This document shows positions 9,812 to 60,725 of a DNA stretch of 64,000 nt, in pieces. The DNA is taken from assembly GCA_963575745.1 (NCBI GenBank), contig CAUYUJ010000002.1, positions 1,612,001 through 1,676,000 of the forward strand, written 5' to 3'. The number at the start of each line of letters is the position of its first letter. The stretch's first letter is position 1. This DNA comes from Prorocentrum cordatum (lineage: Eukaryota). Made by a program: the position numbers and the translations under genes. The notes under the pieces are model-generated. The model had not been told where the DNA came from and did not search any database. It saw nothing but the letters and a program-made list of their open reading frames with translations.

Positions 9812-11540
9812 TGAAGTCGGGCATGTCATTCGACAGCAGAAATACTCGAGAAAAGTCAGAAAAATCGTATGGGGACGATTGTTCGATTATGTCTCACTGT
9901 TGTTGAGCACTTTTTGATTATTTGCTATTTTCCCGGAAAGGGCATGAGCCCAGGGTTCTCTTTTAGTTGGTAAACCTAATCCCCCGGTGCCAACTTGAGG
10001 GAGGCCGGCGAATTTTTTCCCTGATAAATAACGAGGTCGAAGGAGGCCGGCGAATTAAAATTTGAGGATGTCTCGAGCGAAACGCTTGTTTTTGAAATCC
10101 CGATCGATAAATCACAGGGTGCGGGCCACTTTTTCGTGTGTTGAGGATGTCTCGAGCGAAACGCTTGCTCCGCAGAGTTTGCCGAGGATGTCTCGAGCGA
10201 AACGCTTGTTTTGCAGAGCCGACCGCGACGCGGAAAAGCGCCCCGCGCGAAGGAATTTCGATGATGTCTCGACTAATTCGTTTGTTTTTGTACGATTTCC
10301 TGGAATTTTGGCAGGATGTCTCGAGCGAAATGCACGACCCCACCCTAGCACGACCATACCCCAGCACGACCACACCCCAGCACGACCAGACCCCAGCACG
10401 ACCCCACCCCAGCACGACCCCACCCCAGCACGACCATACCCAGCACGACCACACCCCAGCACGACCCGACCCCAGCACGACCCTACCCCAGCAAGACCAC
10501 ACCCCAGCACGACCACACCCCAGCACGACCTCACCACAGCACGACCACACCCCAGCACGACCACGCCCCAGCACGACCACGCCCCAGCACGACCACGCCC
10601 CAGCACGACCACCCCCCAGCACGACCACCCCCCCAGCACGACCACCCCCGAGCACGACCACCCCCCAGCACGACCACACCCCAGCACGACCACTCCCCAG
10701 CACGACCACACCCCAGCACGACCACACCCCAGCACGACCACACCCCAGCACGACCACACCCCAGCACGACCACACCCCAGCACGACCCGATCGAAATCAC
10801 AGGGTGCGGACACCCCAGCACGACCCCACCCCAGCACGACCCCACCCCAGCACGACCACGCCCCAGCACCACACCCCAGCACGACCACACCCCAGCACGA
10901 CCACACCCCAGCACGACCCCACCCCAGCACGACCCCACCCTAGCACGACCACACCCCAGCACGACCACACCCCAGCACGACACCCCAGCACGACACCCCA
11001 GCACGACCGCACCACACCCCAGCACGACCACACCCCAGCACGACCTTACCACAGCACGACCACACCCCAGCACGACCACGCCCCAGCACGACCACGCCCC
11101 AGCACGACCACGCCCCAGCACGACACGACCACGCCCCAGCACGACCACGCCCCAGCACGACCACCCCCCAGCACGACCACCCCCCCAGCACGACCACCCC
11201 CCAGCACGACCACCCCCCAGCACGACCACACCCCAGCACGACCACTCCCCAGCACGACCACACCGCCTTGGTTGAGTGGTTGCCTGTCGTCGTGGAATGT
11301 TTCGTGGGGTGTCTCGTGGAATGTTTCGCGGGGTGTCTCGTGAAATGTTTCGTGAGGTGTCTCGTGGAATGTTTCGTGAGGTGTCTCGTGGGCTGTTTCG
11401 TGAGGTGTCTCGTGGGATGTTTCGTGAGGTGTTGCCCAGTTGGGTATCATGAAAACGTGTCCATGCTCCACATGTCTATATCCCTTTCCGGGTTCGTGGG
11501 TCCATCATGTTTCTTCTGTGGGAGGACATGCCCGACCTAA
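9812..11540. mobile_element. hAT-like MITE family H (TIR TTAGGTCGGGCATGTCC..., 8-bp TSD), interrupted by Helentron-like copy E1
   Basis: tgaagtcgggcatgtc ... gacatgcccgacctaa, flanked by gagctgtt and gagctgtc. Confidence 0.8.
9932..11509 (+). mobile_element. Non-autonomous Helitron2/Helentron-like element E1 (16-bp minisatellite type)
   Basis: Starts CCCGGAAAGGG, ends CCCTTTCCGGG-TTCGTGGGTCCATCATG, and sits in a T-run. Internal CCCCAGCACGACCACA array and 12/24-bp CTCGTGGAATGTTTCGTG repeats. Confidence 0.8.
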
Positions 11541-18680: not shown

Positions 18681-18845
18681 TTAAGGCGGGCCTTTCTTTC
18701 TACAGCGGGAGTAGTCTAAGATAGTTGAATAAATAGTCTGGGGACGGTTTTTCTAATATTTGTGTGTGTCTATGTTTGGGATACTTTTAGAGTAGTTTCA
18801 ATTATTCGCCCAAAATCCGCCTGTAGGGGGACATGCCCGACCTAA
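18681..18845. mobile_element. hAT-like MITE family H
   Basis: ttaaggcggg ... cccgacctaa, flanked by cactaaca and cattgaca. Confidence 0.75.
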
Positions 18846-39502: not shown

Positions 39503-39540
39503 GTGCTCCCAGGAGGAAAAGGTACCGACTACCGGCGCAG

Positions 39541-39689
39541 TTCAGTCGGGCATGTCCCTCTACCGGAGGAATATTCAAAATATAATTTGATGACGATGTT
39601 TCGACTATGTGTGACTATTTTGGAGTATTTGTTAGGTATGTTTTATTTGTCACCCAAAATCCGCCTGTAGGAGAACATTCCCGACCAAA
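39541..39689. mobile_element. hAT-like MITE family H
   Basis: ttcagtcgggcatgtcc ... cattcccgaccaaa, with degenerate TSD cggcgcag/gggtacag. Confidence 0.75.
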
Positions 39690-39987
39690 GGGTACAGTGG
39701 AGGCCCATGCCAAGAGTCACCCTGCTTGCCTCCAGGGTGCCCTGGGTTTCTTGGGCTTCGATGGTTCTGCTGTGGAAGGCGTGTGACGTTCCCGCACCAG
39801 AAATCAAGGGGCGTTCAGGGGTCTCAGGGTCGGGTTTCTTGTGGAAGGTTTCTTGTGGACTGGCCTCCAGTGTACCGATTACCGGTACCCTTGCCTCGTT
39901 TTTCCCTTTGGGGTCCCCGTTGCCACCGCTGGATTCGCCTCGAAATCTTGGTCAGAGCGCACCCCGGGAAAGGTCTGGGGAGTAGCG

Positions 39988-40486
39988 TAAATTGGGCATT
40001 ACCTCTACAGAAGGAATTTTCAAAAATTGTCCAAACATAGTCTGGGGACGATTTTTCTACTATTTCTAACTATTTCTGAATATGTTATCCAAATATGCTT
40101 GACCTATAGGAGTCCTCTCAAACCCTACCATTGGGTCCTATGCCCCCCCTAAGTCCTATGCCCCCCCTAATTCCTATGGCTATGCCTATGCCTATGCCTA
40201 CGCCTCCCTCTTACTCCTATGCCTACGCCTATGGCTATGCCTATGCCTATGCCTGCTTGCTTGCTTGCTTGCTTGCGCGCATGCGCGCTTGCACGCTTGC
40301 TTACTTGCGCGCTTGCGCGCTTGCTTGCACGCTTGCTTGCTTGCTGAGGTCGGATTCCAAGCATGCTTGATTCCTCTCATTCCTTGATTTGAGTCATCTC
40401 ATCTATTTGGAGTCAACGCTGGCTGATATTTGGCTATGTTTGATTTTCATACAATATCTGCCTGTAGGGGGACATGCCCGACCTAA
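39988..40486. mobile_element. hAT-like MITE family H expanded by (TATGCC)n and (GCTT)n microsatellites
   Basis: taaattgggcatt ... gacatgcccgacctaa, flanked by gagtagcg and gagtggca. Confidence 0.65.
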
Positions 40487-40520
40487 GAGTGGCAGTATCG
40501 GTGCCTTCTGGTTTCCCCAG

Positions 40521-41107
40521 GTGCTCGGCGAGGCTCATGAGGCCGGTGCTCGAGCTGCTCGGGTGCATGGCCGCCGCGTTGTTCGGCCTTTGCCGCGTGT
40601 GCCGCGGCGTGCTCTCCAGCACCGGGGGGCCAGCCACTGGTCAGCAGTGCCTGGTCAGCTCCAGGGAGCAGGACGCGTGGCAGGGCTCGACGGTTTGGGG
40701 GCCGTCCACGGCTGCCGTGAGGCGGCGCACGCGAGCGCATCTGGAGGCGCTGGCCGATGCGGCAGAGAGCTCCCCGGCGGCGCTCGCAGCCATTGGACTG
40801 AGCTCCGAGGACGTCCGCAGGCACGCAGCAGAGCTCCAGCACATCCAGGAGAACTGCACGCCCATGCGGACTCCTGGCTCGAGGCCATCGTGGTGGCTGG
40901 CGGGTGAGGGCAACGTGGGCGGTGCTGCCGAGGCGGAGGAGGAGGTGCTCGCCGCTGCGCGTCGGGCTGGGCCAGCCGAGATGTTGATGGCTTGTGCCAT
41001 CGTGCTCTCGCTGCCCAGCACCGTGCTCATCGTCGAGGTCGCGACGGGCTCCTTCGACGTGGCCTGTGCTTGCGGTGTCGTTGGAGTCAGTTGCGCCGCG
41101 TGGGCAG
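40521..41107 (+). CDS. Large exon of host gene (CSARLMRPVLELLGCMAAALFG...MLMACAIVLSLPSTVLIVEVATG...CAAWA)
   Basis: ccccag| acceptor and cag|GC donor, phase 2 to 1, 587 nt without a stop, hydrophobic stretches. Confidence 0.75.
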
Positions 41108-41330
41108 GCATGGCCTCCTACGATCCGATTCGATGCGATTCGATTCGCCGGCTGGGGCCGCGATTCCAATTCGATGCGATCCCGCTCTATCCACCGGCAT
41201 CGGCCAGGGCCAGCCGGAAGCGGGGCGCGGCGATCCGATTTCGATCCGATTCGGGACACGATTCGCTGGCGATTCGATCCGCTCTCGATCCGAGCCGACG
41301 TCGCGATCCGATCCAGCGCAGACCTGGCAG

Positions 41331-41552
41331 GGCTGTTCGACGAGGGGGAGCACATGTGCAATGCGTCCGTCCTCGCAGTGCTGTCCTGGGCGTGCACGGT
41401 GCTCGGCGCGGCGGCTTGCCTCATGGACGCTGGCTCCGTCGTGGCCTCCGCCGCCCTCCTCGCCACGCTGCGGCTCCGGGCGGTCGGCGCTCGCGGCACG
41501 CGCTGCCCCCTGGCGATGGAGCTCGTCGTCCTCGTCCTCGTCCTCGTCCTCG
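41331..41552 (+). CDS. Exon of host gene (GLFDEGEHMCNASVLAVLSWACTVLGAAACLMDAG...LVVLVLVLVL)
   Basis: ggcag| acceptor and g|GT donor, phase 1 to 1, TM-like. Confidence 0.72.
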
Positions 41553-41574
41553 GTCGGAACACAGACTGACCTAA

Positions 41575-41759
41575 ACACAAACATTCAGAGGTCCGCCCAG
41601 ATTTCTCGGATCCTTGCTGGAGCCCCCTGGTGGCGCCTCCGGCGCTGCCCCTTTCGCGCGCTCCGCGCGCCAGGGAGGGTGGTCCAGCGCCGATCCGAGA
41701 AATCAGCGAAAGCCTCCGAAGGTTTCGCTCTATGTCGCTCGCTGCTCCCCTATATCTAG
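41575..41759. mobile_element. Degenerate MITE family M copy inside an intron, ending in AG
   Basis: gatttctcggatcc...gcgcgctccgcgcgccagggagg...gatccgagaaatc core. Confidence 0.6.
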
Positions 41760-41901
41760 GCCTCCTAGATGGGGTCAGGGTAGATGGGGTCGGAAGATCG
41801 CGCCGCATCGCCGATGCATCGGCGATGCGGCTCGATGTGGAGCCCGATTTCCTCCACAACGACGTTGCCGACCCCATCTACTCCGACCCTATCTTGGAGG
41901 C
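41760..41901. mobile_element. 142-bp palindromic insertion (about 34-bp TIR) at an exon start
   Basis: gcctcctagatggggtcagggtagatggggtcgg pairs with ccgaccccatctactccgaccctatcttggaggc. Confidence 0.7.
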
Positions 41902-42060
41902 GCCTACTACAGGAGTACGTGCTCGGCCACATGGTCGGGGGGGTCATCCAGGCCTTCCAGCGCAGCCCGGCCGAGTTCCCCGACGAGCGGGGCCGGGCTC
42001 TGGCGGTGGCGGGCTGCGCCCTCGGCGCCTGCGCCGCGCATGCCCTGCGCCCCGCCGGCG
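41902..42060 (+). CDS. Exon of host gene (LLQEYVLGHMVGGVIQAFQRSPAEFPDERGRALAVAGCALGACAAHALRPAG); acceptor uncertain
   Basis: Coding-like codon use. Phase-1 donor at 42061 (GC) or 42067 (GT) joins the 44961 exon in frame. Confidence 0.65.
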
Positions 42061-42159
42061 GCCAGGGTTAAATCGGGCGTGTTCCTCTACAGGAGGAGTA
42101 TTCAAAATCGTCAAACAAATAGTCAGGGGGCGATTTTCCGACTATGTTTGACCGTTTTT

Positions 42160-43744
42160 CCCGGAAAGGGCTCGGGCCCAGGGTTCTCTTTTAGTGGGTA
42201 AACCTGTCCCCCGGTGCCAACTTGAAGGAGGCCGGCGAATTTTTTCCCTGATAAATATCGAGGTCGAAGGAGGCCGGCGAATTAAAATTTGAGGATGTCT
42301 CGAGCGAAACGCTTGTTTTTGAAATCCCGATCGATAAATCACAGGGTGCGGGCCACTTTTTCGTGTGTTGAGGATGTCTCGAGCGAAACGCTTGCTCCGC
42401 AGAGTTTGCCGAGGATGTCTCGAGCGAAACGCTTGTTTTGCAGAGCCGACCGCGACGCGGAAAAGCGCCCCGCGCGAAGGAATTTCGATGATGTTTCGAC
42501 TAATTTGTTTGTTTTTGTACGATTTCCTGGAATTTTGGCAGGATGTCTCGAGCGAAATGCACGACCCCACCCTAGCACGACCATACCCCAGCACGACCAC
42601 ACCCCAGCACGACCAGACCCCAGCACGACCCCACCCCAGCACGACCCCACCCCAGCACGACCATACCCCAGCACGACCACACCCCAGCACGACCCGACCC
42701 CAGCACGACCCTACCCCAGCAAGACCACACCCCAGCACGACCACACCCCAGCACGACCTCACCACAGCACGACCACACCCCAGCACGACCACGCCCCAGC
42801 ACGACCACGCCCCAGCACGACCACGACCACCCCCCAGCACGACCACCCCCCCAGCACGACCACCCCCAGCACGACCACCCCCCAGCACGACCACACCCCA
42901 GCACGACCACTCCCCAGCACGACCACACCCCAGCACGACCACACCCCAGCACGACCACACCCCAGCACGACCACACCCCAGCACGACCCGATCGATAAAT
43001 CACAGGGTGCGGAGCACCCCAGCACGAACCCACCCCAGCACGACCCCACCCCAGCACGACCCCACCCCAGCACGACCACGCCCCAGCATGACCACACCCC
43101 AGCACGACCACACCCCAGCACGACCACTCCCCAGCACGACCCCACCCCAGCACGACCCCACCCTAGCACGACCACACCCCAGCACGACCACACCCCAGCA
43201 CGACCCCACCCCAGCACGATCACACCCCAGCACGACCCCACCCCAGCAAGACCACACCCCAGCACGACCGCACCCCAGCACGACCTTACCACAGCACGAC
43301 CACACCCCAGCACGACCACGCCCCAGCACGACCACGCCCCAGCACGACCACGCCCCAGCACGACCACGCCCCAGCACGACCACGCCCCAGCACGACCACC
43401 CCCCAGCACGACCACCCCCCCAGCACGACCACCCCCCAGCACGACCACCCCCCAGCACGACCACACCCCAGCACGACCACTCCCCAGCACGACCACACCG
43501 CCTTGGTTGAGTGGTTGCCTGTCGTCGTGGAATGTTTCGTGGGGTGTCTCGTGGAATGTTTCGCGGGGTGTCTCGTGAAATGTTTCGTGAGGTGTCTCGT
43601 GGAATGTTTCGTGAGGTGTCTCGTGGGCTGTTTCGTGAGGTGTCTCGTGGGATGTTTCGTGAGGTGTTGCCCAGTTGGGTATCATGAAAACGTGTCCATG
43701 CTCCACATGTCTATATCCCTTTCCGGGTTCGTGGGTCCATCATG
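42160..43744 (+). mobile_element. Helitron2/Helentron-like element E5
   Basis: Same termini. First about 400 bp nearly identical to E1, E6 and E8. Confidence 0.8.
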
Positions 43745-43749
43745 TTTTT

Positions 43750-44888
43750 CCCGGAAAGGGCTGGCCCAGGGTTCTCTTTTAGTGGTAAACCTGTCCCCCG
43801 GTGCCAACTTGAAGGAGGCCGGCGAATTTTTTCCCTGATAAATATCGAGGTCGAAGGAGGCCGGCGAATTAAAATTTGAGGATGTCTCGAGCGAAACGCT
43901 TGTTTTTGAAATCCCGATCGATAAATCACAGGGTGCGGGCCACTTTTTCGTGTGTTGAGGATGTCTCGAGCGAAACGCTTGCTCCGCAGAGTTTGCCGAG
44001 GATGTCTCGAGCGAAACGCTTGTTTTGCAGAGCCGACCGCGACGCGGAAAAGCGCCCCGCGCGAAGGAATTTCGATGATGTCTCGACTAATTCGTTTGTT
44101 TTTGTACGATTTCCTGGAATTTTGGCAGGATGTCTCGAGCGAAATGCACGACCCCACCCTAGCACGACCATACCCCAGCACGACCACACCCCAGCACGAC
44201 CATACCCCAGCACGACCACACCCCAGCACGACCACCCCAGCACGACCCTACCCCAGCAAGACCACACCCCAGCACGACCACACCCCAGCACGACCACCCC
44301 AGCACGACCACGCCCCAGCACGACCACGACACCCAGCACGACCACAGCACGACCCCACCCCAGCACGACCACTGCACGCACCCAGCACGCACGCACCCAC
44401 ACCCCAGCACGACCCACCCCAGCACGACCACACCCCAGCACGACCACACCCCAGCACGACCTTACCACAGCACGACCACACCCCAGCACGACCACGCCCC
44501 AGCACGACCACGCCCCAGCACGACCACGCCCCAGCACGACCACGCCCCAGCACGACCACGACAGCACACGACCACCCCCAGCACGACCACACCCCCAGCA
44601 CGACCACAGCCCCAGCACGACCACTCCCCAGCACGACCACACCGCCTTGGTTGAGTGGTTGCCTGTCGTCGTGGAATGTTTCGTGGGGTGTCTCGTGGAA
44701 TGTTTCGCGGGGTGTCTCGTGAAATGTTTCGTGAGGTGTCTCGTGGAATGTTTCGTGAGGTGTCTCGTGGGCTGTTTCGTGAGGTGTCTCGTGGGATGTT
44801 TCGTGAGGTGTTGCCCAGTTGGGTATCATGAAAACGTGTCCATGCTCCACATGTCTATATCCCTTTCCGGGTTCGTGGGTCCATCATG
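43750..44888 (+). mobile_element. Helitron2/Helentron-like element E6, head-to-tail with E5
   Basis: Junction CATG-TTTTT-CCCGG. Confidence 0.8.
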
Positions 44889-44960
44889 TTGGGGGTATGC
44901 GATGACTACTAATAATTTTTCGTCCAACATTTGCATGTAGGAGGACATGCCCGACCTAAG

Positions 44961-45088
44961 GCCAGGGCTCGCCGGGCGCCGCGGCGTGGTGCGCCTCTGG
45001 GGCGGCGCTGGTGGTGAGCGTGTGGGCGCTCGCGGAGGAGGGCTCCCACGGCCTGCTGCTCGGGCTCTGGTGGCTTGCCGCCTGGGAG
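44961..45088 (+). CDS. Exon of host gene (GQGSPGAAAWCASGAALVVSVWALAEEGSHGLLLGLWWLAAWE)
   Basis: cctaAG| acceptor and gag|GC donor, phase 1 to 0, TM-like. Confidence 0.72.
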
Positions 45089-45094
45089 GCTCAG

Positions 45095-45995
<901 letters not shown>

Positions 45996-46007
45996 CCATT
46001 TTGGCTC
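45996..46007 (+). other. Relict spliced-leader core at LINE 5' end
   Basis: CCATTTTGGCTC is an exact 12-nt match to DinoSL (DCCGTAGCCATTTTGGCTCAAG), at the microsatellite/LINE boundary. Confidence 0.65.
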
Positions 46008-49000
46008 TCGCGGCGGCATGGGCTGGGGCTCGCAGCTGCCATCTGTTTTACGATTCTGCCTCCAAGTGCTAAATGTCGATGGGCTCGCGCCGCCGCTCGT
46101 GCGAGCCAGTACCAGTGCCAGCAGCAAAGGACGGACCCACGATGATGATGCACGTTAGGGAAATGCTGCGCTCCGAGATCAAGGAGCCGATGGCGAAAGA
46201 TTTCGCGGACGTGAATACGTCCATCGACAATGTACGCAGGGACGTCGAGAGACACGAAGGGCGCCTCAACAACATGGAGCAGGATATCAAGGACTTATGT
46301 CAGGGACGTTCGGCGGTTCCCTCATCCACGGCGGCATCCTCGGTCGGGCATCCGCTGCGCTTCTCGGGGGTGGGGGGCGCGCCGGCACAGCGGGTCGCGT
46401 CGGGGCCGAACAGGGCTTGCGACAAGATATGTGTGACTATCGGCGGCTGGGATCGGGACACACCCCGCGACGCCATCCTGAACGAAGCTTGCGCTCACCG
46501 ACGCCATTCCCGACAAAGTAGAGGATGGGGCGTTCGTCCCGCTCAAGCGTGCCAATTTCCTGAAGGTCAGTTTCACGAGTTCGGGGCGCACGTGGGCGTG
46601 TGTACGTTCGATGAAAGGGAAGCAGATCACAACGCCGCAGCTACATCACCTGGGTCGTCGCTTGTGGAGAAGCCCTCGGGGGAAATCCGGCTGTCAATGA
46701 TGATCTCGCGTGCGAAGAAGGAGATGACCGACAACCTAGGCGTGCTGGCGGCGGACCTCGAGCTGGACTACATTCGGGGCATCATCTGGTGAAAGCAGCA
46801 CAGGTTCGGCGAGATGGTGCGGACCACGGGCCTCATGAGCTTCAAGGAGCACGTCGCGGCCGACATCAGCGCCCATGCGGGCGCGCACCTCAGCCTGGTC
46901 GAGTTCCAGGCCAAGGTCAACCAGCCAATGACTGGACAAGGAGAGGACTCTGGAGGAGTCCGAGGAGCAGATGTGCTTCAAGCTCATCAGCTGGGACGCT
47001 CAGGGCATTGCGAAGCACAGCGCCGAGTACTTTGCAGCGACGCTGCGCGAACAGCACGACCACGACGCGGCCATCTTCCAGGAGGCCGGCTACTGGGGCA
47101 AGACCACGAGGTTGGAGGTCGGCGAGGGCGACTTCTACCTGGTCACACCGCGGGTCGAGTGGCAAAAGCAGATGGGGCTGCCGGTGCGCTCACGGGCTTG
47201 ACTTTTTCTACGAGGAGTTTTGCTACCATGGGGGCGCTCGGCGGCGCGCCTATTTCGCATCCGCAAGACGGACTATTGGATAGCGTGCTGTCACATTTTC
47301 CAGGGCGCCCCCTATGATAACTCCACGGAGGAGCTATCCGACCTGATCACGATGGCACCGCTTGGGGCGTGCCCGATCGTGGGCGCGGACGCGCGGGCGA
47401 CCTTGCCCCCCCCCCCGCAGGCGGACGAGGAGCGCTGGATCGGGGACTTCCCAGTCGGTCAGCGCACGCGTCGCGCCGAGATGTTGACGAGATTTCTCAT
47501 GCAGCGCGACCTGGCGGCGGCGAACACGTTCACTGCGGCGGCGAGCGGGCCCGCCTGCCACTGCGATTTCAAGCGTCCGCCAGCCCAGATCGACTCTGTC
47601 CTGATTCCCGATCGCGACATCTGGAAGGCCGCACCACGCTAGAGGAGGTCCGACAGCGCGCAATCCGACCACGCGGCCATCAAGCTGGAGTCCACCCTTG
47701 GCACCAGGAGGCGCTGTATCTGGAACGGAGGTCGTGCGCCTATGAAGGGCTGGACCTGTCTCGACAACCGCTTCCAGCGCTGGAGCCACGGCGCCTGCTA
47801 CGCCGAGCACAACCCAGCGCCGATTACTTCCATGGCGGACGCAGTGCACCTGGCTGCCGCTGCCTGTGGCAGGGGCCTACCTGCGAGGAGGGTTCCCAGG
47901 CTCCCCGAGGGCCGCGAGCTCATGCAGACGCTGCGGATGTTGGAAGCGCGTCGGCGGGTCACACGCGACCGCGTTCAGCGCGCGATCTACAGCGAGGATG
48001 CCATCCGGATCCGCGGGAAGGTCTGGGCCGCGAACAGGGCCCTGCAGCACTGCCTCCACGAGGCTGGCAATCCCCGAGCACGAGCGCCTGAGGGCCTCGC
48101 CGAGCTCAGCCTGGCGCGATCCACGACCAGCCGATGAACGCGGAGGGGGGCATCGATGACGACCCGCTGCGGATCAAGGAGCTCCTGGAGCGCGATTACG
48201 GCAGCGCCTGCAGGGCCAGCGACAGGGAGGAGCTCGTCGGGGCCACTGCCTGCCTCGCCCACTTCACGACGGAGGATGCATTCGATATCCCGCCCTTCTC
48301 GCCCGAGATGCTCCGCGAGGCTCTGTGCGACATGAAGGCCATGCGGGCGCCTGGCGTGGGCGGGGTGGTCGCCGAGGTTTTGCAGGCCCTCGACTCGGGC
48401 TCCCTCGCCTCGCTCGCGGCCGTCTTCGAGAGCCACTTCCGCGGGGTATCCGAGCATGCCAGTGGCCAGGCCTGGTCGAAGCACATCATCCAGCTCATGA
48501 TGAAGAAGGGAGGCAAGCACGCGCTCAAGGGGTACAGGCCGATCATGCTCCTCACTACCTTCGAGAAGCTCTACTCGGTTGGCCTAGTCAAGAAGTGTGC
48601 CAGTTGACCCTGCGGAACCCACAGTGCGCCTTTCGGGAGCTCCACCAAGCGATGGGCGTGACCTTCAGCATGCGCATGATGGCGGAGAAGGCCCGCAAGT
48701 GGAACATACCCATCTCTATCATGGATGGCGATATCGAGGCGGCATTCGACCGCGTCTCGCACCGCTCGGTCGAGGAGACACTGAGAAGAAGGGCTGTGCC
48801 AGGGCCCGTGATCCTTGCCATCACGAGGGAATTGAAGGCGACGGCCGTGATCACCATGTGCTCGATCCAGACGCAACCAGTACCTCGGACACGCGGCATT
48901 CGACAAGGAGATCTAGCCAGCGCGATCCCCTTCAATCTCGTGCTGGAGGATGCCTGGGAGGAGTTCCTGGGCGAATGCCGGACGCGCGGCCGGGGCTGCG

Positions 49001-52962: not shown

Positions 52963-53103
52963 TTAAGTCGGGCACGTCCTTCTACAGGGGGAATATTGCA
53001 AAACTGTAAAAAGTAGTCTGGGGACGATGTTTCGATTCTTTCTCAACTCTTATGTTTAAGTTTCCGCCCCAAATCCGCCTGTAGGGGGACACGCCCGACC
53101 TAA
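52963..53103. mobile_element. hAT-like MITE family H, compact 141-bp copy
   Basis: ttaagtcgggcacgtccttctacagg ... cctgtagggggacacgcccgacctaa, with TSD ctgtagcg/ctgtcgcg. Confidence 0.85.
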
Positions 53104-54229: not shown

Positions 54230-56174
54230 GAGTAGATCTTGGCTGTTTGGGGCGCCTGTTTCAGGCAGGTGGAGCCTCTCCCCCACAGGACGCACTGCTG
54301 CAACCAGTCGCATTCAGCAGAGGTCTGGAAACAGACCTCCTCCCCCCCCTCCCTCTTACCGCCCAGTGTCGCAACGCCGAGCAAAAAAAAGCTCACGTTC
54401 CAGATCGCGCGACGGGAGGGTCGGCAGCCACGGCCCCGGAAGGGGCCCCTGGCGGGCCTCCGGGCGCCGCCCCTAACCCACCAGAGGCGGCGGCCCAGGA
54501 GGTCTCCAGAAGCCTCGGGGGGGGGGGCCTCGGGCCCCCGAGCGGAGCAGGCACCACGTCCTGCAGGAGGGAAATATAAGAAAATATTGGAAATGGGCGG
54601 AAAGACGAAACCCAGAAAATGTTGGAAAATACGGGTGAATCCTGGGATTTGTGTCTATGTGTTAGTGTGTCCCTGGGCCCGTTAAATCCTGTGGTGAGAC
54701 CGGGGGGACTGCGGGTGCGCACGCTTTTGGGACTCGGGCCGTTCTCCGAGGATGTCTCGGGCGACCGGGGCCTGCGAGGTCCCAGAGCGGTGCGGTGACG
54801 GACCCGTGCAGTGAGGTCGCTTGGGGTTTCGGGGTCACCGCACGGTCTGTCACCGCACCGCGTCTGGACTCCCGCGCCTGTACGTAGATCGAAGGCATTT
54901 TCCCCGATCCATGAATATGGCGCCCACGCGCCAGATCCACGCAGATCCGTAATGATGGGCTTATTCTCCACCACCAATACCAAAGGTAGGAGGCGGAGGG
55001 AAGAGGAGGAGGAGGAGGAGGAGGACCAGTGTAAACCCAAGACTCATCCATGATGTTGGAATAGATCCTCCCTCCGAGCTCCCTCTTCATAGACACTGAG
55101 AGAACTGCCTCGTTTGGAGACAACCGTATGAAGACCCTGAAGCATGCCACAACATCATTCTCGGGACTCCAACGCCACGGATCAACTTGATTGTTGCGTC
55201 TTGATCGTGCCAGAACATCATTCTTGGGATTTCAACACCGCGAATCAACGTTAATTATGCATCCCCGCAATCCTGAGGCCTTCCAAAACATCACTTCTGG
55301 TACGTTGGCCATGGGAACCCGCGAAACTCGTGCAACATTTGAAAACGAATGTGCGTGGCGCGAAGGCGCAAGACACATTTCGAAAACGAACCGCACTCAA
55401 TCCGTGAAACTATTGCAGATGTTTACGTAAGACGAGCGCGCGCGGCGCTCAAGCGAGAGGCACATGTTGAAAATTGCCCCCCCTCAATCCGTGAAAAGTT
55501 GCCAAGGTGAGTTTCAGGGTCGTAGATGCTAGGCGAAACGCCCGGCCCGCCCTTTCGACCGGCCTCTGGGCGCGACAGGGAGGAGTTATTGATAAGAAAA
55601 TGAATGGAGGAGGAGGAGGAGAAGAAGAAGAAGAAGAGGACGAAGAGGAGGATGAGGAGGAGGAGGAGAATTATGAGGAGGGGGAGGAGAAGGAGGAGAG
55701 GAGGACCTCCACATCCTCCCCTCTCCCCCGTCCTACATCGGTAGTGGCGGTGGTGGAAGATTGGCCCATCACGTGATCCGTGTGAGCGGCTGGCCCGGGC
55801 CAAAGGGGGTTGCTACCCCAAGGAGGAGCTTAGACAACGAACCTAGCTGGAGCCCGCCTCCTTCAGCCAGGGGCCGCTACTTCTCAGGAGGAGGAAGACA
55901 CACAGAGACAAAGAGTCGTCGGCTCCTGGGAAGCGATGGGAAGAGATGGGCAGTGGGGTGGCGGACGAAAGTCCAGAAGATATGGAAAACATATATGGGG
56001 GATCCTGGGATCTGTGTCTCTTCATCTGTGTGTCCTGGGGCCCCCTCAGCTTTCCTCGACCCCAACCCCTGCCCCCCCCCCACACATCCGGCGCCTCGAC
56101 TTTTGTTTCAGGCACGGGCGCCCGATTTCTCGACCACTTCCCGAGGACCGGTTGTTCCTCCCGTGTCATTTTTT

Positions 56175-57754
56175 CCCGGAAAGGGCTGGGGCCCAGGGTT
56201 CTCTTTTAGTTGGTAAACCTGTCCCCCGGTGCCAACTTGAAGGAGGCCGGCGGATTTTTTCCCTGATAAATATCGAGGTCGAAGGAGGCCGGCGGATTAA
56301 AATTTGAGGATGTCTCGAGCGAAACGCTTGTTTTTGAAATCCCGATCGATAAATCACAGGGTGCGGGCCACTTTTTCGTGTGTTGAGGATGTCTCGAGCG
56401 AAACGCTTGCTCCGCAGAGTTTGCCGAGGATGTCTCGAGCGAAACGCTTGTTTTGCAGAGCCGACCGCGACGCGGAAAAGCGCCCCGCGCGAAGGAATTT
56501 CGATGATGTCTCGACTAATTCGTTTGTTTTTGTACGATTTCCTGGAATTTTGGCAGGATGTCTCGAGCGAAATGCACGACCCCACCCTAGCACGACCATA
56601 CCCCAGCACGACCACACCCCAGCACGACCAGACCCCAGCACGACCCCACCCCAGCACGACCCCACCCCAGCACGACCATACCCCAGCACGACCACACCCC
56701 AGCACGACCCGACCCCAGCACGACCCTACCCCAGCAAGACCACACCCCAGCACGACCACACCCCAGCACGACCTCACCACAGCACGACCACACCCCAGCA
56801 CGACCACGCCCCAGCACGACCACGCCCCAGCACGACCACGCACGACCTACCCCCCCAGCACGACCACCCCCAGCACGACCACACCCCAGCACGCACGACC
56901 ACACCCCAGCACGACCACTCCCCAGCACGACCACACCCCAGCACGACCACACCCCAGCACGACACACCCCAGCACGACCACACCCCAGCACGACCACACC
57001 CCAGCACGACCCGATCGATAAATCACAGGGTGCGGAGCACCCCAGCACGAACCCACCCCAGCACGACCCCACCCCAGCACGACCCCACCCCAGCACGACC
57101 ACGCCCCAGCACGACCACACCCCAGCACGACCACCCCCCAGCACGACCACTCCCCAGCACGACCCCACCCCAGCACGACCCCACCCTAGCACGACCACAC
57201 CCCAGCACGACCACACCCCAGCACGACCCCACCCCAGCACGAGCACACCCCAGCACGACCCCACCCCAGCAAGACCACACCCCAGCACGACCGCACCCCA
57301 GCACGACCTTACCACAGCACGACCACACCCCAGCACGACCACGCCCCAGCACGACCACGCCCCAGCACGACCACGCCCCAGCACGACCACGCCCCAGCAC
57401 GACCACGCCCCAGCACGACCACCCCCCAGCACGACACGACCACCCCCAGCACGACCACCCCCCAGCACGACCACACCCCAGCACGACCACTCCCCAGCAC
57501 GACCACACCGCCTTGGTTGAGTGGTTGCCTGTCGTCGTGGAATGTTTCGTGGGGTGTCTCGTGGAATGTTTCGCGGGGTGTCTCGTGAAATGTTTCGTGA
57601 GGTGTCTCGTGGAATGTTTCGTGAGGTGTCTCGTGGGCTGTTTCGTGAGGTGTCTCGTGGGATGTTTCGTGAGGTGTTGCCCAGTTGGGTATCATGAAAA
57701 CGTGTCCATGCTCCACATGTCTATATCCCTTTCCGGGTTCGTGGGTCCATCATG
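56175..57754 (+). mobile_element. Helitron2/Helentron-like element E8
   Basis: Same termini, very similar to E5. Confidence 0.8.
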
Positions 57755-57755
57755 T

Positions 57756-60725
57756 CCCGGAAAGGGCGTAGGCCCAGGGTTCTCTTTTAGCTGTTTACCC
57801 CCGGGTCTGACTTGAGGTGGTCCCTAGCGAAACGCTTGTTTTTCAGAATTTGTTGAGGATGTCTCGACCGAAACGGTAGTTTTGCAGAGGTGGGGATGTC
57901 TCGAGAGAAACGCTTGTTTTCAGAATTTGTTGAGGATGTCTCGAGCGAAACGCTGGTTTTGCAGAGCCGACCGCGACGCGGAAAAGCGCCCCGCGCGCAG
58001 GAATTCCGAGGATGTCTCGCGCGTGCTGCGTCCCGCGCGCAGGAATCTAGAGGATGTCTCGACTAATTCGTTTGTTTTCCTATGATTCCCTTGAATTCTG
58101 GCAGGATGTCTCGAACGAGATGTTTGTTCCCGGAAAGGGCTCGAGCCCAGGGTTTTCTTTTAGTGGGTTTACCCCCCGGTTTCGACGGCTGGAGGGCCGG
58201 CGAAATTATTCTGCGATAAATTACGTGCGGGAGTAGGGCCGGCGGAATTATTTTTGAGGATGTCTCGAGCGAAACGCTTGTTTTTCAGCATTTGTTGAGG
58301 ATGTCTCGAGCGAAACGCTGGTTTTGCAGAGTTGGGGATGTCTCGAGCGAAACGCTTGGTTTCAGAATTTGTTGAGGATGTCTCGAGCGAAACGCTGGTT
58401 TTGCAGAGCCGACCGCGACACGGAAAAGCGCTCCTCGCGCAGGAATTCCGAGGATGTCTCGCGCGTGCCGCGTCCCGCGCGCAGGAATTTTGATTTCTTC
58501 GGGTTTTGACAGGATTTCTCGAGCGAAACGCTTGTTTTTCATAATTTGTTGAGGATGTCTCGAGCGAAACGCTGGTTTTGCAAAATTGGGGGATGTCTCG
58601 AGCGGGGGCCTCGTGGGGGGCCAGAATTCAGAGGATGTCTCAGGCGAAATGCTTGTTTTCGTGTCCCGCTCGCAGGAATTCCGAGGATGTCTCGCGCGTG
58701 CCGCGTCCCGCGCGTAGGAAGTCGGATGATTTTGAGAGGATGTCTCGAGCGAAACGCTTGTCCCCAGCACGTTCAGTAGCGCGTCCCCTTGGCACGCCCC
58801 GCGGTGCGACCCCATGGCACGTCCCCTGGCACGTCGCCTGGCGCATCCCTTGGGACGTTTCGCGGCGCGTCCTCCTGGCATGTTCCCCTGTCCATTAGCT
58901 CTGGGGCAGCTACTATGTGTTCAGGCAGCTCGAGCTTAAGATCCAGATCAGTTCGGTCAGGACTCGGATGCAAAGGAGGACTCGATCCACGATGCTATAG
59001 AGCACAACCGCGGCATGGCACATCGCAATTCAGCACGGTGCAGCACAGCACAGCCCTCGGCAGGGTACATCAAGATCGGTACACTCAGCATTGCAACTTG
59101 GCACGTTCCTTGGCACGTTCCGTGGGGCGTCCCTTGGCGAGTCCCCCTGGCACGTCGCGTGGCGCGTCCCCTGGCACATTCCGTGGCACATCCATTGGCA
59201 CGTTCCGTAGCGCGTCCCTTTGGCACGTCCTACGGTGCGACCCCATGGCGCGTCCCCTGGCACGTCGCCTGGCGCATCCCTTGGGACGTTTCGCGGCGCG
59301 TCCTCCTGGCATGTTCCCCTGTCCATAAGCTCTGGGGCAGCTACTATGTGTTCAGGCAGCTCGAGCTTAAGATCCAGAACAGTTCGGTCAGGACTCGGAT
59401 GCAAAGGAAGACTCGATCCACGACGCTATAGAGCACAGTCGCGCCATGGCACATCGCAATTCATCACGGCGCAGCACAGCACAGCCCTCGGCAGGGTACA
59501 TCAAGATCGATACACTCAGCATTGCATTTGCCCGTCACCCAATCAGGTGTCTTTGAAAACGCTGCCATGTGTTACAGTTCTATATTCCTTTCCGGGTTCG
59601 TGGGTCGATCATGTTTTTTTCATAATTGGTTGAGGATGGTTCGAGCGAAACACTGGTTTTGCAAAATTGAGGATGTCTCGAGCGGGGGCCTCGTGGGGGC
59701 CAGAATTCAGAGGATGTCTCAAGCAAAATGCTTGTTTTCACGTCCCGCTCGCAGGAATTCCGAGGATGTCTCGCGCGTGCCGCGTCCCGCGCGCAGGAAT
59801 TTCGAGGATGTCTTGACTAATTCGTTTGTTTTGCCAGGATTTTCTTAGATTTTGACTCGAGCGAAACGCTTGTCCCCAGCACGTTCCGTAGCGCGTCCCC
59901 TTGGCACGTCCCGCGGTGCGTCCCCATGGCACGTCCCTTGGCACGTCGCTTGGCGCGTCCCTTGAGACGTTCCGCGTCGCGTCCTCCTGGCATGTCCCCC
60001 TGTCCATTAGCTCTGGGGCAGCTACTATGTGTTCAGGCAGCTCGAGCTTAAGATCGAGATCAGTTCGGTCAGGACTCGGATGCAAAGGAGGACTCGATCC
60101 ACGAGGCTATAGAGCACAATCGCGGCATGGCGCATCGCAATTCAGCACGGCGCAGCACAGCACATATTTCGGCACGGTACATCAAGATCGATACACTCAG
60201 CATTGCAACTTGGCACGTTCCTTGGCACGTTCCGTGGCGCGTCCCTTGGCGAGTCTCCCTGGCACGTCGCGTGGCGCGTCCCCTGGCACATCCCGTGGCA
60301 CATCCATTGGCACGTTCCGTAGCGCGTCCCCTTGGCACGTCCCGCGGTGCGACCCCATGGCATGTCCCCTGGCACGTCGCCTGGCGCATCCCTTGGGACG
60401 TTTCGCGGCGCGTCCTCCTGACATGCTCCCCTGTCCATCAGCTCTGGGGCAGCTACTATGTGTTCAGGCAGCTCGAGCTTAAGATCCAGATCAGTTCGGT
60501 CAGGACTCGGATGCAAAGGAAGACTCGATCCACGACGCTATAGAGCACATTCGCGGCATGGCACATCGCAGTTCAGCACGGTGCAGCACAGCACAGCCCT
60601 CGGCAGGGTATATGAAGATCGATACACTTAGCATTGCATTTGCCCGTCACCCAATCAGGTGTCTTTGAAAACGCCGCCACGTGTTACAGTTCTATATTCC
60701 TTTCCGGGTTCGTGGGTCGATCATG
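57756..60725 (+). mobile_element. Helitron2/Helentron-like element E9 (second type) with nested E10
   Basis: Begins one T after the E8 end. Its internal repeat unit is split at 58128/59614 by E10. Confidence 0.75.
58129..59613 (+). mobile_element. Helitron2/Helentron-like element E10 nested in E9
   Basis: CCCGGAAAGGG start and ...GTCGATCATG end inside a T-run of E9. Confidence 0.75.

Follow-up and report, generated by a model that had tools for sequence, protein, structure and literature searches.

How can a gene stay usable when a transposon lands in the middle of its coding sequence? The question arises at a locus of Prorocentrum cordatum, a bloom-forming dinoflagellate with unusually long introns, where a MITE of a family that we call family H lies between two coding segments. 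We analysed the locus within a stretch of 64,000 nucleotides (the window), and all positions are counted from its first letter (Table 1). We consider it likely that the insertion of this element created an intron, which is spliced at sites built from the element's TIR ends and the target duplication (TSD) and was later enlarged by Helentron-like copies. If so, the locus is a well-bounded case of a DNA transposon that makes an intron out of coding sequence and leaves the gene functional.

Table 1. Positions of the host-gene exons, the family H MITE, its nested inserts and the candidate splice sites in the window
Feature	Position	Strand	Evidence or remarks
Exon 1, coding	40521..41107	+	RNA contigs of runs X15, X16 and X17 cover 40518-41102 with 0-2 mismatches, joined to 41326
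Intron 2 (GC..AG), GGCAGG at both borders	41108..41330	+	RNA joint and sequence
Exon 2, coding	41331..41518	+	RNA contigs over 41326-41517; frame of exon 1 continues; aligns with homologues
Intron 3 (GA..AG, 394 nt)	41519..41912	+	RNA joint 41517->41912 in 3 runs
Exon 3, coding (EYVLGHMVGG...HALRPAG)	41913..42060	+	3' end at 42057, 42060 or 42066, depending on the donor
Three in-frame candidate 5' splice sites	42058..42068	+	GC 42058-59, GC 42061-62, GT 42067-68
Left TSD copy, 8-bp GGCCAGGG	42060..42067		Sequence
Left MITE arm, imperfect TIR TTAAATCGGGCGTGTTCC, then T-run 42155-42159	42068..42154		Matches the left arms of other copies
Helentron-like non-autonomous copy A	42160..43744	+	5' CCCGGAAAGGG, 3' subterminal CCCTTTCCGGG, end ...CATCATG; T-run 43745-43749 follows
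Helentron-like copy B, head to tail with A	43750..44888	+	Shorter 16-nt array; TT 44889-90 follows
Right MITE arm, ending in a perfect TIR (44943-44959)	44891..44959		Matches the right arms of other copies
Candidate 3' splice site AG, then G (AGG acceptor)	44959..44960	+	Sequence; also in the public gene model
Right TSD copy, 8-bp GGCCAGGG	44960..44967		Sequence
Exon 4, coding (..QGSPGAAAWCASGAALVVSVWALAEEGSHGLLLGLWWLAAWE)	44961..45088	+	X15 RNA contig and homologue profile

The element interrupts an expressed and conserved gene

The host gene encodes a dinoflagellate-specific membrane protein that is both conserved and expressed. Translated exon 1 matches residues 228-422 of P0004, the public P. 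cordatum gene model, at 100% identity and has 12 relatives at E<=1e-3; no Pfam family was found for P0004 or for three homologues (P0005-P0007). PolyA-RNA contigs of 1046-1195 nt, obtained in three runs from two studies, join 40518-41102, 41326-41517 and 41912-42025 with 0-2 mismatches. The first joint (41102->41326) skips 223 nt, with six letters that fit either side, and the borders of intron 2 read GC..AG only when it is shifted by 5; the second (41517->41912) skips 394 nt, and both occur in three RNA runs. As these joints imply a GC..AG and a GA..AG intron, non-GT donors are used in this gene. The frame of exon 3 is fixed by its RNA joint with exon 2, and three contigs cover the exon without mismatch (41912-42025, 41912-42010 and 41912-41982). 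The reading frame of exons 1-3 defined by RNA is the one proposed in the preliminary description of the locus.

Downstream of the element, a 295-nt contig from RNA run X15 matches 44996-45091, in and just beyond exon 4, without a mismatch before it diverges from the genomic sequence; the exon probably ends at a GC donor at 45089. The depth of this contig (50.2) is close to that of the upstream exons in the same run (47.2). The only candidate for the last exon, a "GGA-stop" further downstream at 55822-33, was rejected: it is without an acceptor in front, and chance alone should, roughly estimated, produce about one match of this kind.

The coding segments on both sides of the element belong together. 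We compared the locus with protein or mRNA-derived sequences by means of a seven-homologue profile; contig size or source marks six or more of the seven as mRNA-derived (four come from Logan or JGI contigs of 1.7-2.2 kb, and two from Trinity ORFs). A multiple alignment scattered the short exon 3 fragment and was replaced by profile alignment of the joined exons. Exons 1-4 align as one colinear domain over profile positions 223-575, and the score rises from 208 to 222 bits once exon 4 is added. By itself, exon 4 scores 18.3 bits at profile positions 541-575, a value reached by none of 500 shuffles, while its other frames score -4.6 or not at all. Exons 3 and 4 are colinear in the profile with a gap of two residues. 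The element sits in coding sequence, and its flanks are contiguous in relatives. Protein word searches with exon 3 and with exon 4 each gave no match at E<=0.01, and the search with exon 1 returned P0004 only, with no close orthologue or transcript-derived protein spanning the junction. In an exact search, no metagenome contig matched the 26-nt stretches taken from the end of exon 3 and from exon 4.

A family H MITE with a perfect target duplication separates exons 3 and 4

The preliminary description had placed a family H MITE with a perfect 8-bp TSD between two coding-like segments, and this is borne out: GGCCAGGG stands at both edges of the element, and the flanks are coding exons. Apart from the MITE with its inserts and a single TSD copy, nothing separates exons 3 and 4. 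Without the inserts, the element is about 160 bp long with termini TTA...TAA. Reverse-complemented, its right end, ...GGACATGCCCGACCTAA (44943-44959), reads exactly TTAGGTCGGGCATGTCC, and the left TIR, TTAAATCGGGCGTGTTCC (from 42068), is identical in 20 of 25 aligned columns, the remainder being three transition mismatches and two gaps. Allowing up to three mismatches, the TIR 17-mer has nine matches in the window against 0.20 expected, a count that none of 100 shuffles reached. The TSD 8-mer by itself is not rare in the window (11 matches against 6.7 expected); a match of 8/8 letters at the positions fixed by the TIRs, however, has a chance of about 2.3e-5 at the local base composition.

The window contains six family H copies with colinear arms, and their 8-bp duplications match at 8/8, 7/8, 7/8, 6/8 and 6/8 positions. 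The arms of the element studied here match other copies at 71-96%, the left arm at 39988-40063 (79%) and 39546-39621 (71%), and the right arm at 18800-18845 (85%), 40444-40486 (86%), 53057-53103 (79%) and 11517-11540 (96%). The sequence of the intron is thus that of a mobile family which is present in several copies and has termini and a TSD of its own. One of the six copies forms a putative intron border, two lie inside 39503-40520, a further intron of the host gene upstream of exon 1, and the other three lie elsewhere in the window. Intron-border geometry with a TSD beginning G-G[T/C/A], to which the preliminary description had tied intron creation by the whole family, is seen in one of the six copies in the window.

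The link to hAT elements suggested earlier, drawn from the TSD length, is unsupported. An 8-bp TSD is common to other superfamilies too, such as P and some Mutator-like elements, and the ends of family H, which read TTAGG..., do not fit the YARNG type of hAT terminal motif either as TTAGG or, shifted by one, as TAGGT.

Candidate splice sites lie at the borders of the element and its duplication

The splice-site letters named in the preliminary description (the acceptor AG, GC 42061-62 and GT 42067-68) are present in the sequence, and both of the products it derived from them are in frame. In the acceptor AG, the A is the terminal letter of the element and the G opens the right TSD copy; the GT combines the last G of the left copy with the element's first T. 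Use of GC 42061 would remove 42061-44960 (2900 nt) and join ...HALRPAG to GQGSPG... exactly and in frame; the product would read ...CCGGCG followed at the junction by GCCAGGGCTCG, with a single copy of the 8-mer. Use of GT 42067 would remove 42067-44960 and add two codons (GQ), and GC 42058 would cost one codon.

By position count, no AG from 44939 to 44964 other than AG 44959-60 would leave exon 4 in its homologous frame. The public model P0004 has the same acceptor, placing the intron at 42058-44960. Its tail can be reproduced only with an intron of 2903 nt, and the single version of this intron with standard ends is GC 42058..AG 44960. P0004 may be ab initio at this locus, adding little support, because its neighbouring intron 3 is 392 nt long against 394 nt by RNA. 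The locus brings to light an error in the public model, in which a donor displaced by 2 nt produces a frameshift and a false early stop. Of the exact excision of 42061-44960 proposed earlier, the acceptor is supported, and GC 42061 becomes one of three donor options.

Should the element be spliced, we see an even chance that it is removed inexactly, through GT 42067, which would add Gly-Gln, or GC 42058, which would drop one Gly, with several donors possibly used side by side. Consistent with inexact removal, GT 42067 has the more favourable exon context, as CAG/GT at 42064-68 fits that of two of the three other introns (CAG/GT at 39503 and CAG/GC at 41108), and GC 42058 is the donor implied by the public model. 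Moreover, the three in-frame products score alike (222.3, 222.3 and 222.6 bits) and differ in a poorly conserved loop, and introners that add or delete codons are described in the available text of a published survey (PMC9860276). In favour of GC 42061, on the other hand, this donor restores the ancestral sequence exactly, and GC is the commonest donor in P. cordatum: the available part of the genome report gives 51.4% GC, 24.7% GT and 23.8% GA donors, together with 79.7% AGG acceptors (PMC10666404). The RNA data do not discriminate between the three donors.

At the 42060/44961 junction, for which an RNA check was suggested earlier, both flanks lie in polyA-RNA contigs, but no contig spanning the junction was among the joints listed. 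The RNA contigs stop 35 nt short of the junction on each side, where the sequence is 88.6% GC; upstream, coverage runs to 42025, 42010 and 41982 in the three contigs, the contig on the other side begins at 44996, and the junction falls in the gap. No joint from 42057-42066 to 44961 was among the 15 of 106 RNA joints listed, and no loose end at either splice site among the 24 of 859 loose ends listed; both lists are dominated by noise from a DNA-like run (X1), and neither result is evidence of absence. Likewise, the bins 42296-42611 and 43876-44191, which are without RNA cover in all three RNA runs, and the region 44982-45110, which is without cover in X16 and X17, have no bearing on splicing either way. 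The depth values suggest that, beyond the contigs listed, further ones lie in 41980-42137 in all three RNA runs.

Helentron-like copies are nested in the MITE

The MITE arms are split by two inserts of 1.1-1.6 kb, A and B, which are bounded by T-runs. As described in the available text of Thomas et al. 2014 (PMC4067079), HINEs (DINE-1-like elements) carry subterminal inverted repeats of ~11-13 nt and central tandem repeats, and insert at T-runs with variable numbers of Ts and no target duplication. The inserts share these features. Their 5' (T)CCCGGAAAGGG pairs with the 3' subterminal CCCTTTCCGGG, located 19 nt before the end, to give subterminal inverted repeats of ~13 bp. Central tandem repeats are present as a 16-nt array (57.8 units) and a 24-nt array (6.1 units) in copy A, and as a 16-nt array of 31.8 units in copy B. 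Insertion at T-runs with variable terminal Ts and no duplication is also seen: four to six Ts precede each of the three 5' ends read, and TT to TTTTT follow six of the seven 3' ends read, the seventh (57755) abutting the next copy with a single T. In contrast to HINEs, the inserts lack a significant 3' stem-loop (the last 69 nt fold at -5.3 kcal/mol, z = -0.53, and 54 of 200 shuffles fold as well), and their host is a dinoflagellate. Three of the four structural features checked support a Helentron-like identity.

Copy A is 97-100% identical to copies at 56174-57755 and 9931-11511, a likeness that marks the inserts as young. Copies A and B agree at 98.7% and 100%, and agree with the copies at 56174 and 9931 at 97.4-100%; the two are no closer to each other than to these. 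The earlier proposal of two Helentron-like insertions is upheld as to the type of element, while, judged by their sequences, two insertions and one dimer would look the same.

Proposed origin of the intron

We propose that a family H MITE of ~160 bp would have inserted between the codons for ...ALRPAG and GQGSPG..., duplicating GGCCAGGG. The spliceosome would remove the insertion as an intron, and the gene would stay usable. The 3' site would take its A from the end of the element and its G from the start of the right duplication, and the 5' site would be GC 42058, GC 42061 or GT 42067, in or beside the left duplication. Later, two head-to-tail, satellite-carrying Helentron-like copies would have landed in the T-run of the MITE and stretched the intron from ~160 nt to 2.9 kb.

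It is quite unlikely that the element is instead a recent gene-breaking insertion that escapes splicing. The transcript would then meet TAA at 42069-71, the conserved C-terminal segment would be lost or the allele would be dying, and the exon 4 RNA would stem from an insertion-free allele or strain. Such an insertion, with a perfect duplication and young inserts, would leave the same intact downstream frame. The perfection of the duplication and the youth of the nested inserts do agree with a recent event, as does the frame-0 stop directly inside the TIR; read-through past 42067 enters TTAAATCGGG. No RNA joint across the element was found among those listed, and, as the RNA was sampled from environmental or other sources, an insertion-free allele could have yielded the exon 4 contig. 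However, this contig, from X15, matches the depth of the upstream exons and is itself spliced at its 3' end, and no paralogue of exons 1-4 occurs within the 64-kb window. The left TIR has decayed (three mismatches and two gaps in 25 columns), yet the 8-mer and both frames are intact, and a standard AGG acceptor is present along with three in-frame donors.

It is highly improbable that the MITE landed in an older intron at this codon. Two of the six copies in the window did land in this way, 34 nt and 38 nt from the borders of the intron at 39503-40520. At the present locus, however, no intronic sequence flanks the element, each TSD copy directly adjoins a TIR, and the duplication is itself coding sequence that continues the homologous frame; an older intron would have retained ends of its own.

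The creation of the intron by the family H insertion would also allow a broader reading, which we regard as possible but doubtful. Because the ends of family H are T...A and 8 bp are duplicated, its splicing would be "frame-safe": a G-N6-G target would give a GT..AG intron that adds exactly two codons, a GGH target would give a scarless GC/GT/GA..AG intron, and the T-run would act as a landing pad for Helentron-like elements. If the frame-safe part is true, one insertion offers several in-frame donors and small protein variants; if the landing-pad part is true, 160-nt introners would become the multi-kilobase introns typical of the P. cordatum genome.

Relation to known introners

The mechanism is already known in dinoflagellates, and the locus is a good example of it rather than a new mechanism. 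Introners with 8-nt duplications and the same geometry classes have been published for Polarella and Symbiodinium (bioRxiv 10.1101/2020.10.14.339549, available text). Among the introner-like elements of Polarella glacialis, the accessible part of the same preprint lists classes 6, 8 and 10 as having an 8-nt TSD (form GHN6), and class 3 (8-nt TSD) and class 1 (ends TAAG/TAGG) as making introns in several frames (Roy et al., bioRxiv 10.1101/2020.10.14.339549). As far as those elements are described there, the one studied here resembles them in being a non-autonomous TIR element with an 8-nt duplication in a dinoflagellate host, in drawing its candidate splice sites from element ends and duplicated exon letters with GC, GT and GA donors usable, in the G after the acceptor, and in the possibility of more than one splicing register per family. 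The class 1 end TAAG resembles the end of family H, ...CCTAA, plus the G of the TSD. The differences, in a comparison by description only, are the host, Prorocentrum cordatum, an AG split across the boundary of element and TSD, and three donors in frame within 10 nt; moreover, one intron-forming family H copy is seen here.

An 8-bp duplication is likewise shared with the DNA-transposon introners of Aureococcus and other algae, which, according to the available descriptions, act in either orientation and draw on the duplicated letters for one or both of their splice sites (Huff et al. 2016, as cited; Gozashti et al. 2022, PMC9860276). Some of these add codons, with +12 bp in Aureococcus (PMC9860276, available text). 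In contrast, the present locus belongs to another lineage and element family, and the possible change is +6 nt or -3 nt rather than +12 nt.

For P. cordatum itself, introner elements and introner-rich introns have been reported from the same genome, and the survey pattern, as given in the available part of the report, calls for inverted repeats (8-20 nt) and direct repeats (3-5 nt) no more than 30 nt away from intron ends (Dougan et al. 2023, PMC10666404). The survey defined no families, 8-bp duplications or splice registers, and by our own reading of its rules the 8-bp repeat of this intron falls outside the 3-5 nt rule. The mean intron length reported for this genome is 4.7 kb. The second step proposed here, in which other mobile elements nest in the new intron and enlarge it almost twenty-fold, may help to explain this value.

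Within the same gene, intron 3 holds another MITE, an inverted repeat with 34-nt arms at 41760-41901.

The family H element lies within the coding sequence of a host gene

The 8-mer GGCCAGGG occurs at both 42060-42067 and 44960-44967. Adjoining the inner side of the right copy is a MITE end, ...GGACATGCCCGACCTAA, that is the exact reverse complement of TTAGGTCGGGCATGTCC; the sequence just inside the left copy, TTAAATCGGGCGTGTTCC, is a worn version of the same terminus (20 of 25 aligned columns identical to the intact end, with three transitions and two gaps). The 17-mer of the terminal inverted repeat (TIR) was found nine times in the window at up to three mismatches against 0.20 expected, a count reached by none of 100 shuffles. 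GGCCAGGG alone is common (11 window matches, 6.7 expected); agreement in 8 of 8 letters at two positions fixed by the TIRs has a chance probability of about 2e-5. The left (42068-42154) and right (44891-44959) MITE arms match their counterparts in other family H copies at 71-96%, and where both ends of those copies are clear their flanking 8-mers agree in 7/8, 7/8, 6/8 and 6/8 letters. Together with the five further copies in the window, this confirms the MITE family, the 8-bp target-site duplication and the coordinates put forward in the preliminary description. The hAT label is putative and derives from the length of the duplication.

Positions of host gene exons, transposable elements and candidate donors in the window
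Feature	Position	Remarks
Exon 1	40521-41107
Exon 2	41331-41518
Exon 3	41913 to ~42060
Exon 4	44961-45088
Family H copy	39541-39689
Family H copy	39988-40486	itself interrupted
Family H copy	18681-18845
Family H copy	52963-53103
Family H copy	9812-11540	interrupted
Nested copy A, core	42160-43744
Nested copy B, core	43750-44888
Candidate donor GC	42058	product one codon shorter; implied by public model
Candidate donor GC	42061	restores exactly; choice of preliminary description
Candidate donor GT	42067	+2 codons; duplication's last G plus element's first T; CAG precedes, as at two other introns of the host gene

Splicing is seen in three polyA-RNA contigs of 1195, 1046 and 1183 nt (three runs, two studies; 0-2 mismatches to the window), which run from 40518-41102 to 41326-41517 and then to 41912 onward. 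After allowing for letters that fit either side, the joints define a GC..AG intron at 41108-41330 and a GA..AG intron at 41519-41912, so the host gene already uses non-GT donors. A single open frame spans exons 1-3 and enters the proposed left coding flank in the proposed frame. Exon 4 is represented by a separate 295-nt contig from polyA-RNA run X15, which matches 44996-45091 with 0 mismatches at a depth of 50.2, versus 47.2 for the upstream exons, and departs from the genomic sequence after 45091, at AG/GC.

Exon 1, used as the query of a full phmmer scan, matched 12 proteins at E<=1e-3, including P0004, the public gene model of the locus ("unnamed protein product, partial [Prorocentrum cordatum]"). 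The remaining matches are 31-49% identical and 63-672 residues long, with nine in the range 392-672. The sources of eight homologues are four Logan/JGI contigs of 1.7-2.2 kb, two Trinity ORFs, a Logan contig of 1847 nt and a genome model from Cladocopium; apart from the Cladocopium model, these are probably mRNA-derived. When a profile was built from seven homologues, script-joined exons 1-4 aligned to it as one colinear domain (profile positions 223-575), with the exon 3/exon 4 junction in a variable loop and with a 2-residue gap. The score was 208 bits without exon 4 and 222 bits with it. Alone, in the proposed frame, exon 4 matched the conserved ...LWWLAA.E segment with a score of 18.3 bits, while 500 shuffles all gave 6.1 bits or less and the other two frames -4.6 bits or no score. 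These scores place the MITE inside coding sequence and, with the RNA exons and the open frame, show that its flanks are exons of one expressed, conserved gene.

The host gene is part of a membrane-protein family whose members include P0005-P0010 and P0012, from dinoflagellates where the source is named; Pfam gave no family for the three homologues tried or for P0004. Each of the seven aligned members has Gly-Gly-Ala at its C-terminus, and the motifs RRRTR.ALEALA, HAAEL.HIQE.C.PM and LWWLAA.E are common to them.

Candidate splice sites border the element

We consider it probable that the MITE became an intron: it would have inserted into an exon of the host gene, been removed at candidate sites formed by the duplication and the element's end, and later been enlarged by nested Helentron-like elements. 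The candidate acceptor, AG 44959-60, consists of the last A of the element and the first G of the duplication and is followed by G; by count of positions, no other AG within 44939-44964 leaves exon 4 in the frame of the homologues. This acceptor, named in the preliminary description, is also used by the public model. According to the available text of PMC10666404, 79.7% of the acceptors of this species are AGG, and donors are GC (51.4%, the commonest), GT (24.7%) and GA (23.8%). Exact excision from GC 42061, as originally proposed, holds as an in-frame solution, but the other two donors are equally in frame and the three products score alike (222.3-222.6 bits); any of the three may be the donor used.

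The C-terminal sequence of P0004 is reproducible only with a 2903-nt intron, whose sole standard-ended version is GC 42058..AG 44960. Its neighbouring intron, however, is 392 nt (GC 41521..AG 41912) rather than the 394 nt seen in RNA of three runs (GA 41519..AG 41912). This 2-nt difference frameshifts exon 3 of P0004 and creates a false stop in exon 4 (45015-45017), and the conserved C-terminal part is therefore missing. Since the model disagrees with RNA at the neighbouring intron and is probably not transcript-based in this region, it counts for little as indirect support for the junction.

The 15 listed joints (of 106) and 24 listed loose ends (of 859), most of them from the DNA-like run X1, include no exon 3-exon 4 joint and no loose end at these two sites, and none of the transcript-derived proteins and metagenome records searched crossed the junction. 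Upstream of the junction the three RNA contigs end at 42025, 42010 and 41982; coverage resumes beyond it with the exon 4 contig at 44996. For X15 this leaves 35 nt bare on either side of the junction, with a GC content of 88.6%, making assembly breaks from high GC a plausible technical cause. An unspliced, gene-breaking insertion would accord with the unlisted junction and with the youth of the nested inserts, but the exon 4 contig is itself spliced and as deeply covered as the upstream exons, the adjacent duplication and the frames are intact although the left TIR is worn, and standard splice sites are readily to hand; we regard it as unlikely. Insertion into an older intron is more improbable still, because the MITE, its inserts and one duplication copy fill the whole interval between the two coding parts, with no other intronic sequence at the locus.

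The mechanism of transposon-made introns is already published, and this locus is a further example. The available text of Roy et al. (bioRxiv 10.1101/2020.10.14.339549) describes introner-like elements with inverted repeats in Symbiodinium and Polarella, including classes with 8-nt GHN6 duplications active in either orientation, classes splicing in several registers at sites that span the element/duplication border, and one class ending TAAG/TAGG. In the portions available, Gozashti et al. generalise the mechanism and introners adding codons are reported (PMC9860276, PMC12130899), and introner elements of the P. cordatum genome were found via a 3-5 nt direct repeat pattern (PMC10666404). The local interest lies in the three in-frame donors and in intron growth through nested Helentron-like elements.

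Nested Helentron-like elements enlarge the probable intron

Without nested inserts, the MITE arms give about 160 bp, the size originally estimated. The space between them is taken by one element in two copies, arranged head to tail and bordered by T-runs (TTTTT, TTTTT and TT). Each copy starts with CCCGGAAAGGG, contains a 16-nt satellite, of 57.8 units in copy A and 31.8 in copy B, and a 24-nt array of 6.1 units, has the complement CCCTTTCCGGG 19 nt ahead of its end and terminates ...CATCATG. Full copies, 97-100% identical, are present at 56174-57755 and 9931-11511, with older partial ones elsewhere. Subterminal inverted repeats, central repeats, insertion into T-runs whose number of Ts varies, and the lack of a target duplication are common to these copies and to Helentrons and their non-autonomous derivatives as described in the available text of PMC4067079; folding gave no support for a 3' stem-loop. 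Copies A and B are as close to two other young copies as to each other, or less close to each other, so two insertions are indistinguishable from one dimer or local duplication. The Helentron-like character in the preliminary description thus fits, apart from the stem-loop, whereas its count of two insertions is one of these options.

Two of three independent sites of the young subfamily (9812-11540, 42155-44890, 56174-57770) lie in a family H interior T-run, at differing MITE positions, and copies are joined head to tail at two loci (43745-49 and 57755-56). In a genome of 60% GC, the AT-rich interior of the MITE may attract such insertions preferentially.

Other repeats and introns of the host gene

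Upstream of exon 1, intron 39503-40520 has CAGGTGCTC at both borders (the 5' border from the public model only) and contains two family H copies, 39541-39689 and 39988-40486. An imperfect inverted repeat of ~45 nt, AAGGTACCGACTACCGGCGCAG versus AAGGCACCGATACTGCCACTC, extends 22 nt past their outer ends and may represent an older relative with longer TIRs that likewise gave rise to an intron. A transposon origin is also possible for the RNA-supported GC..AG intron 41108-41330 (223 nt), where GGCAGG stands at each border and inverted repeats of the CGATTCGAT type lie inside. Within intron 3 are a MITE at 41760-41901 with 34-nt arms, 88% complementary, and a segment, 41656-41708, matched by many RNA and DNA contigs with unlike sequence on either side, which indicates an abundant, transcribed repeat. 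Exon 4 is followed by an (ATC)n-type microsatellite of ~830 nt (45116-45942), a sequence agreeing with part of the dinoflagellate spliced leader at 13/15 positions (CCATTTTGGCTCTCG, 45996-46010) and an open frame (46073-46792); 45996-46792 resembles a mobile or retroposed gene within the next intron.
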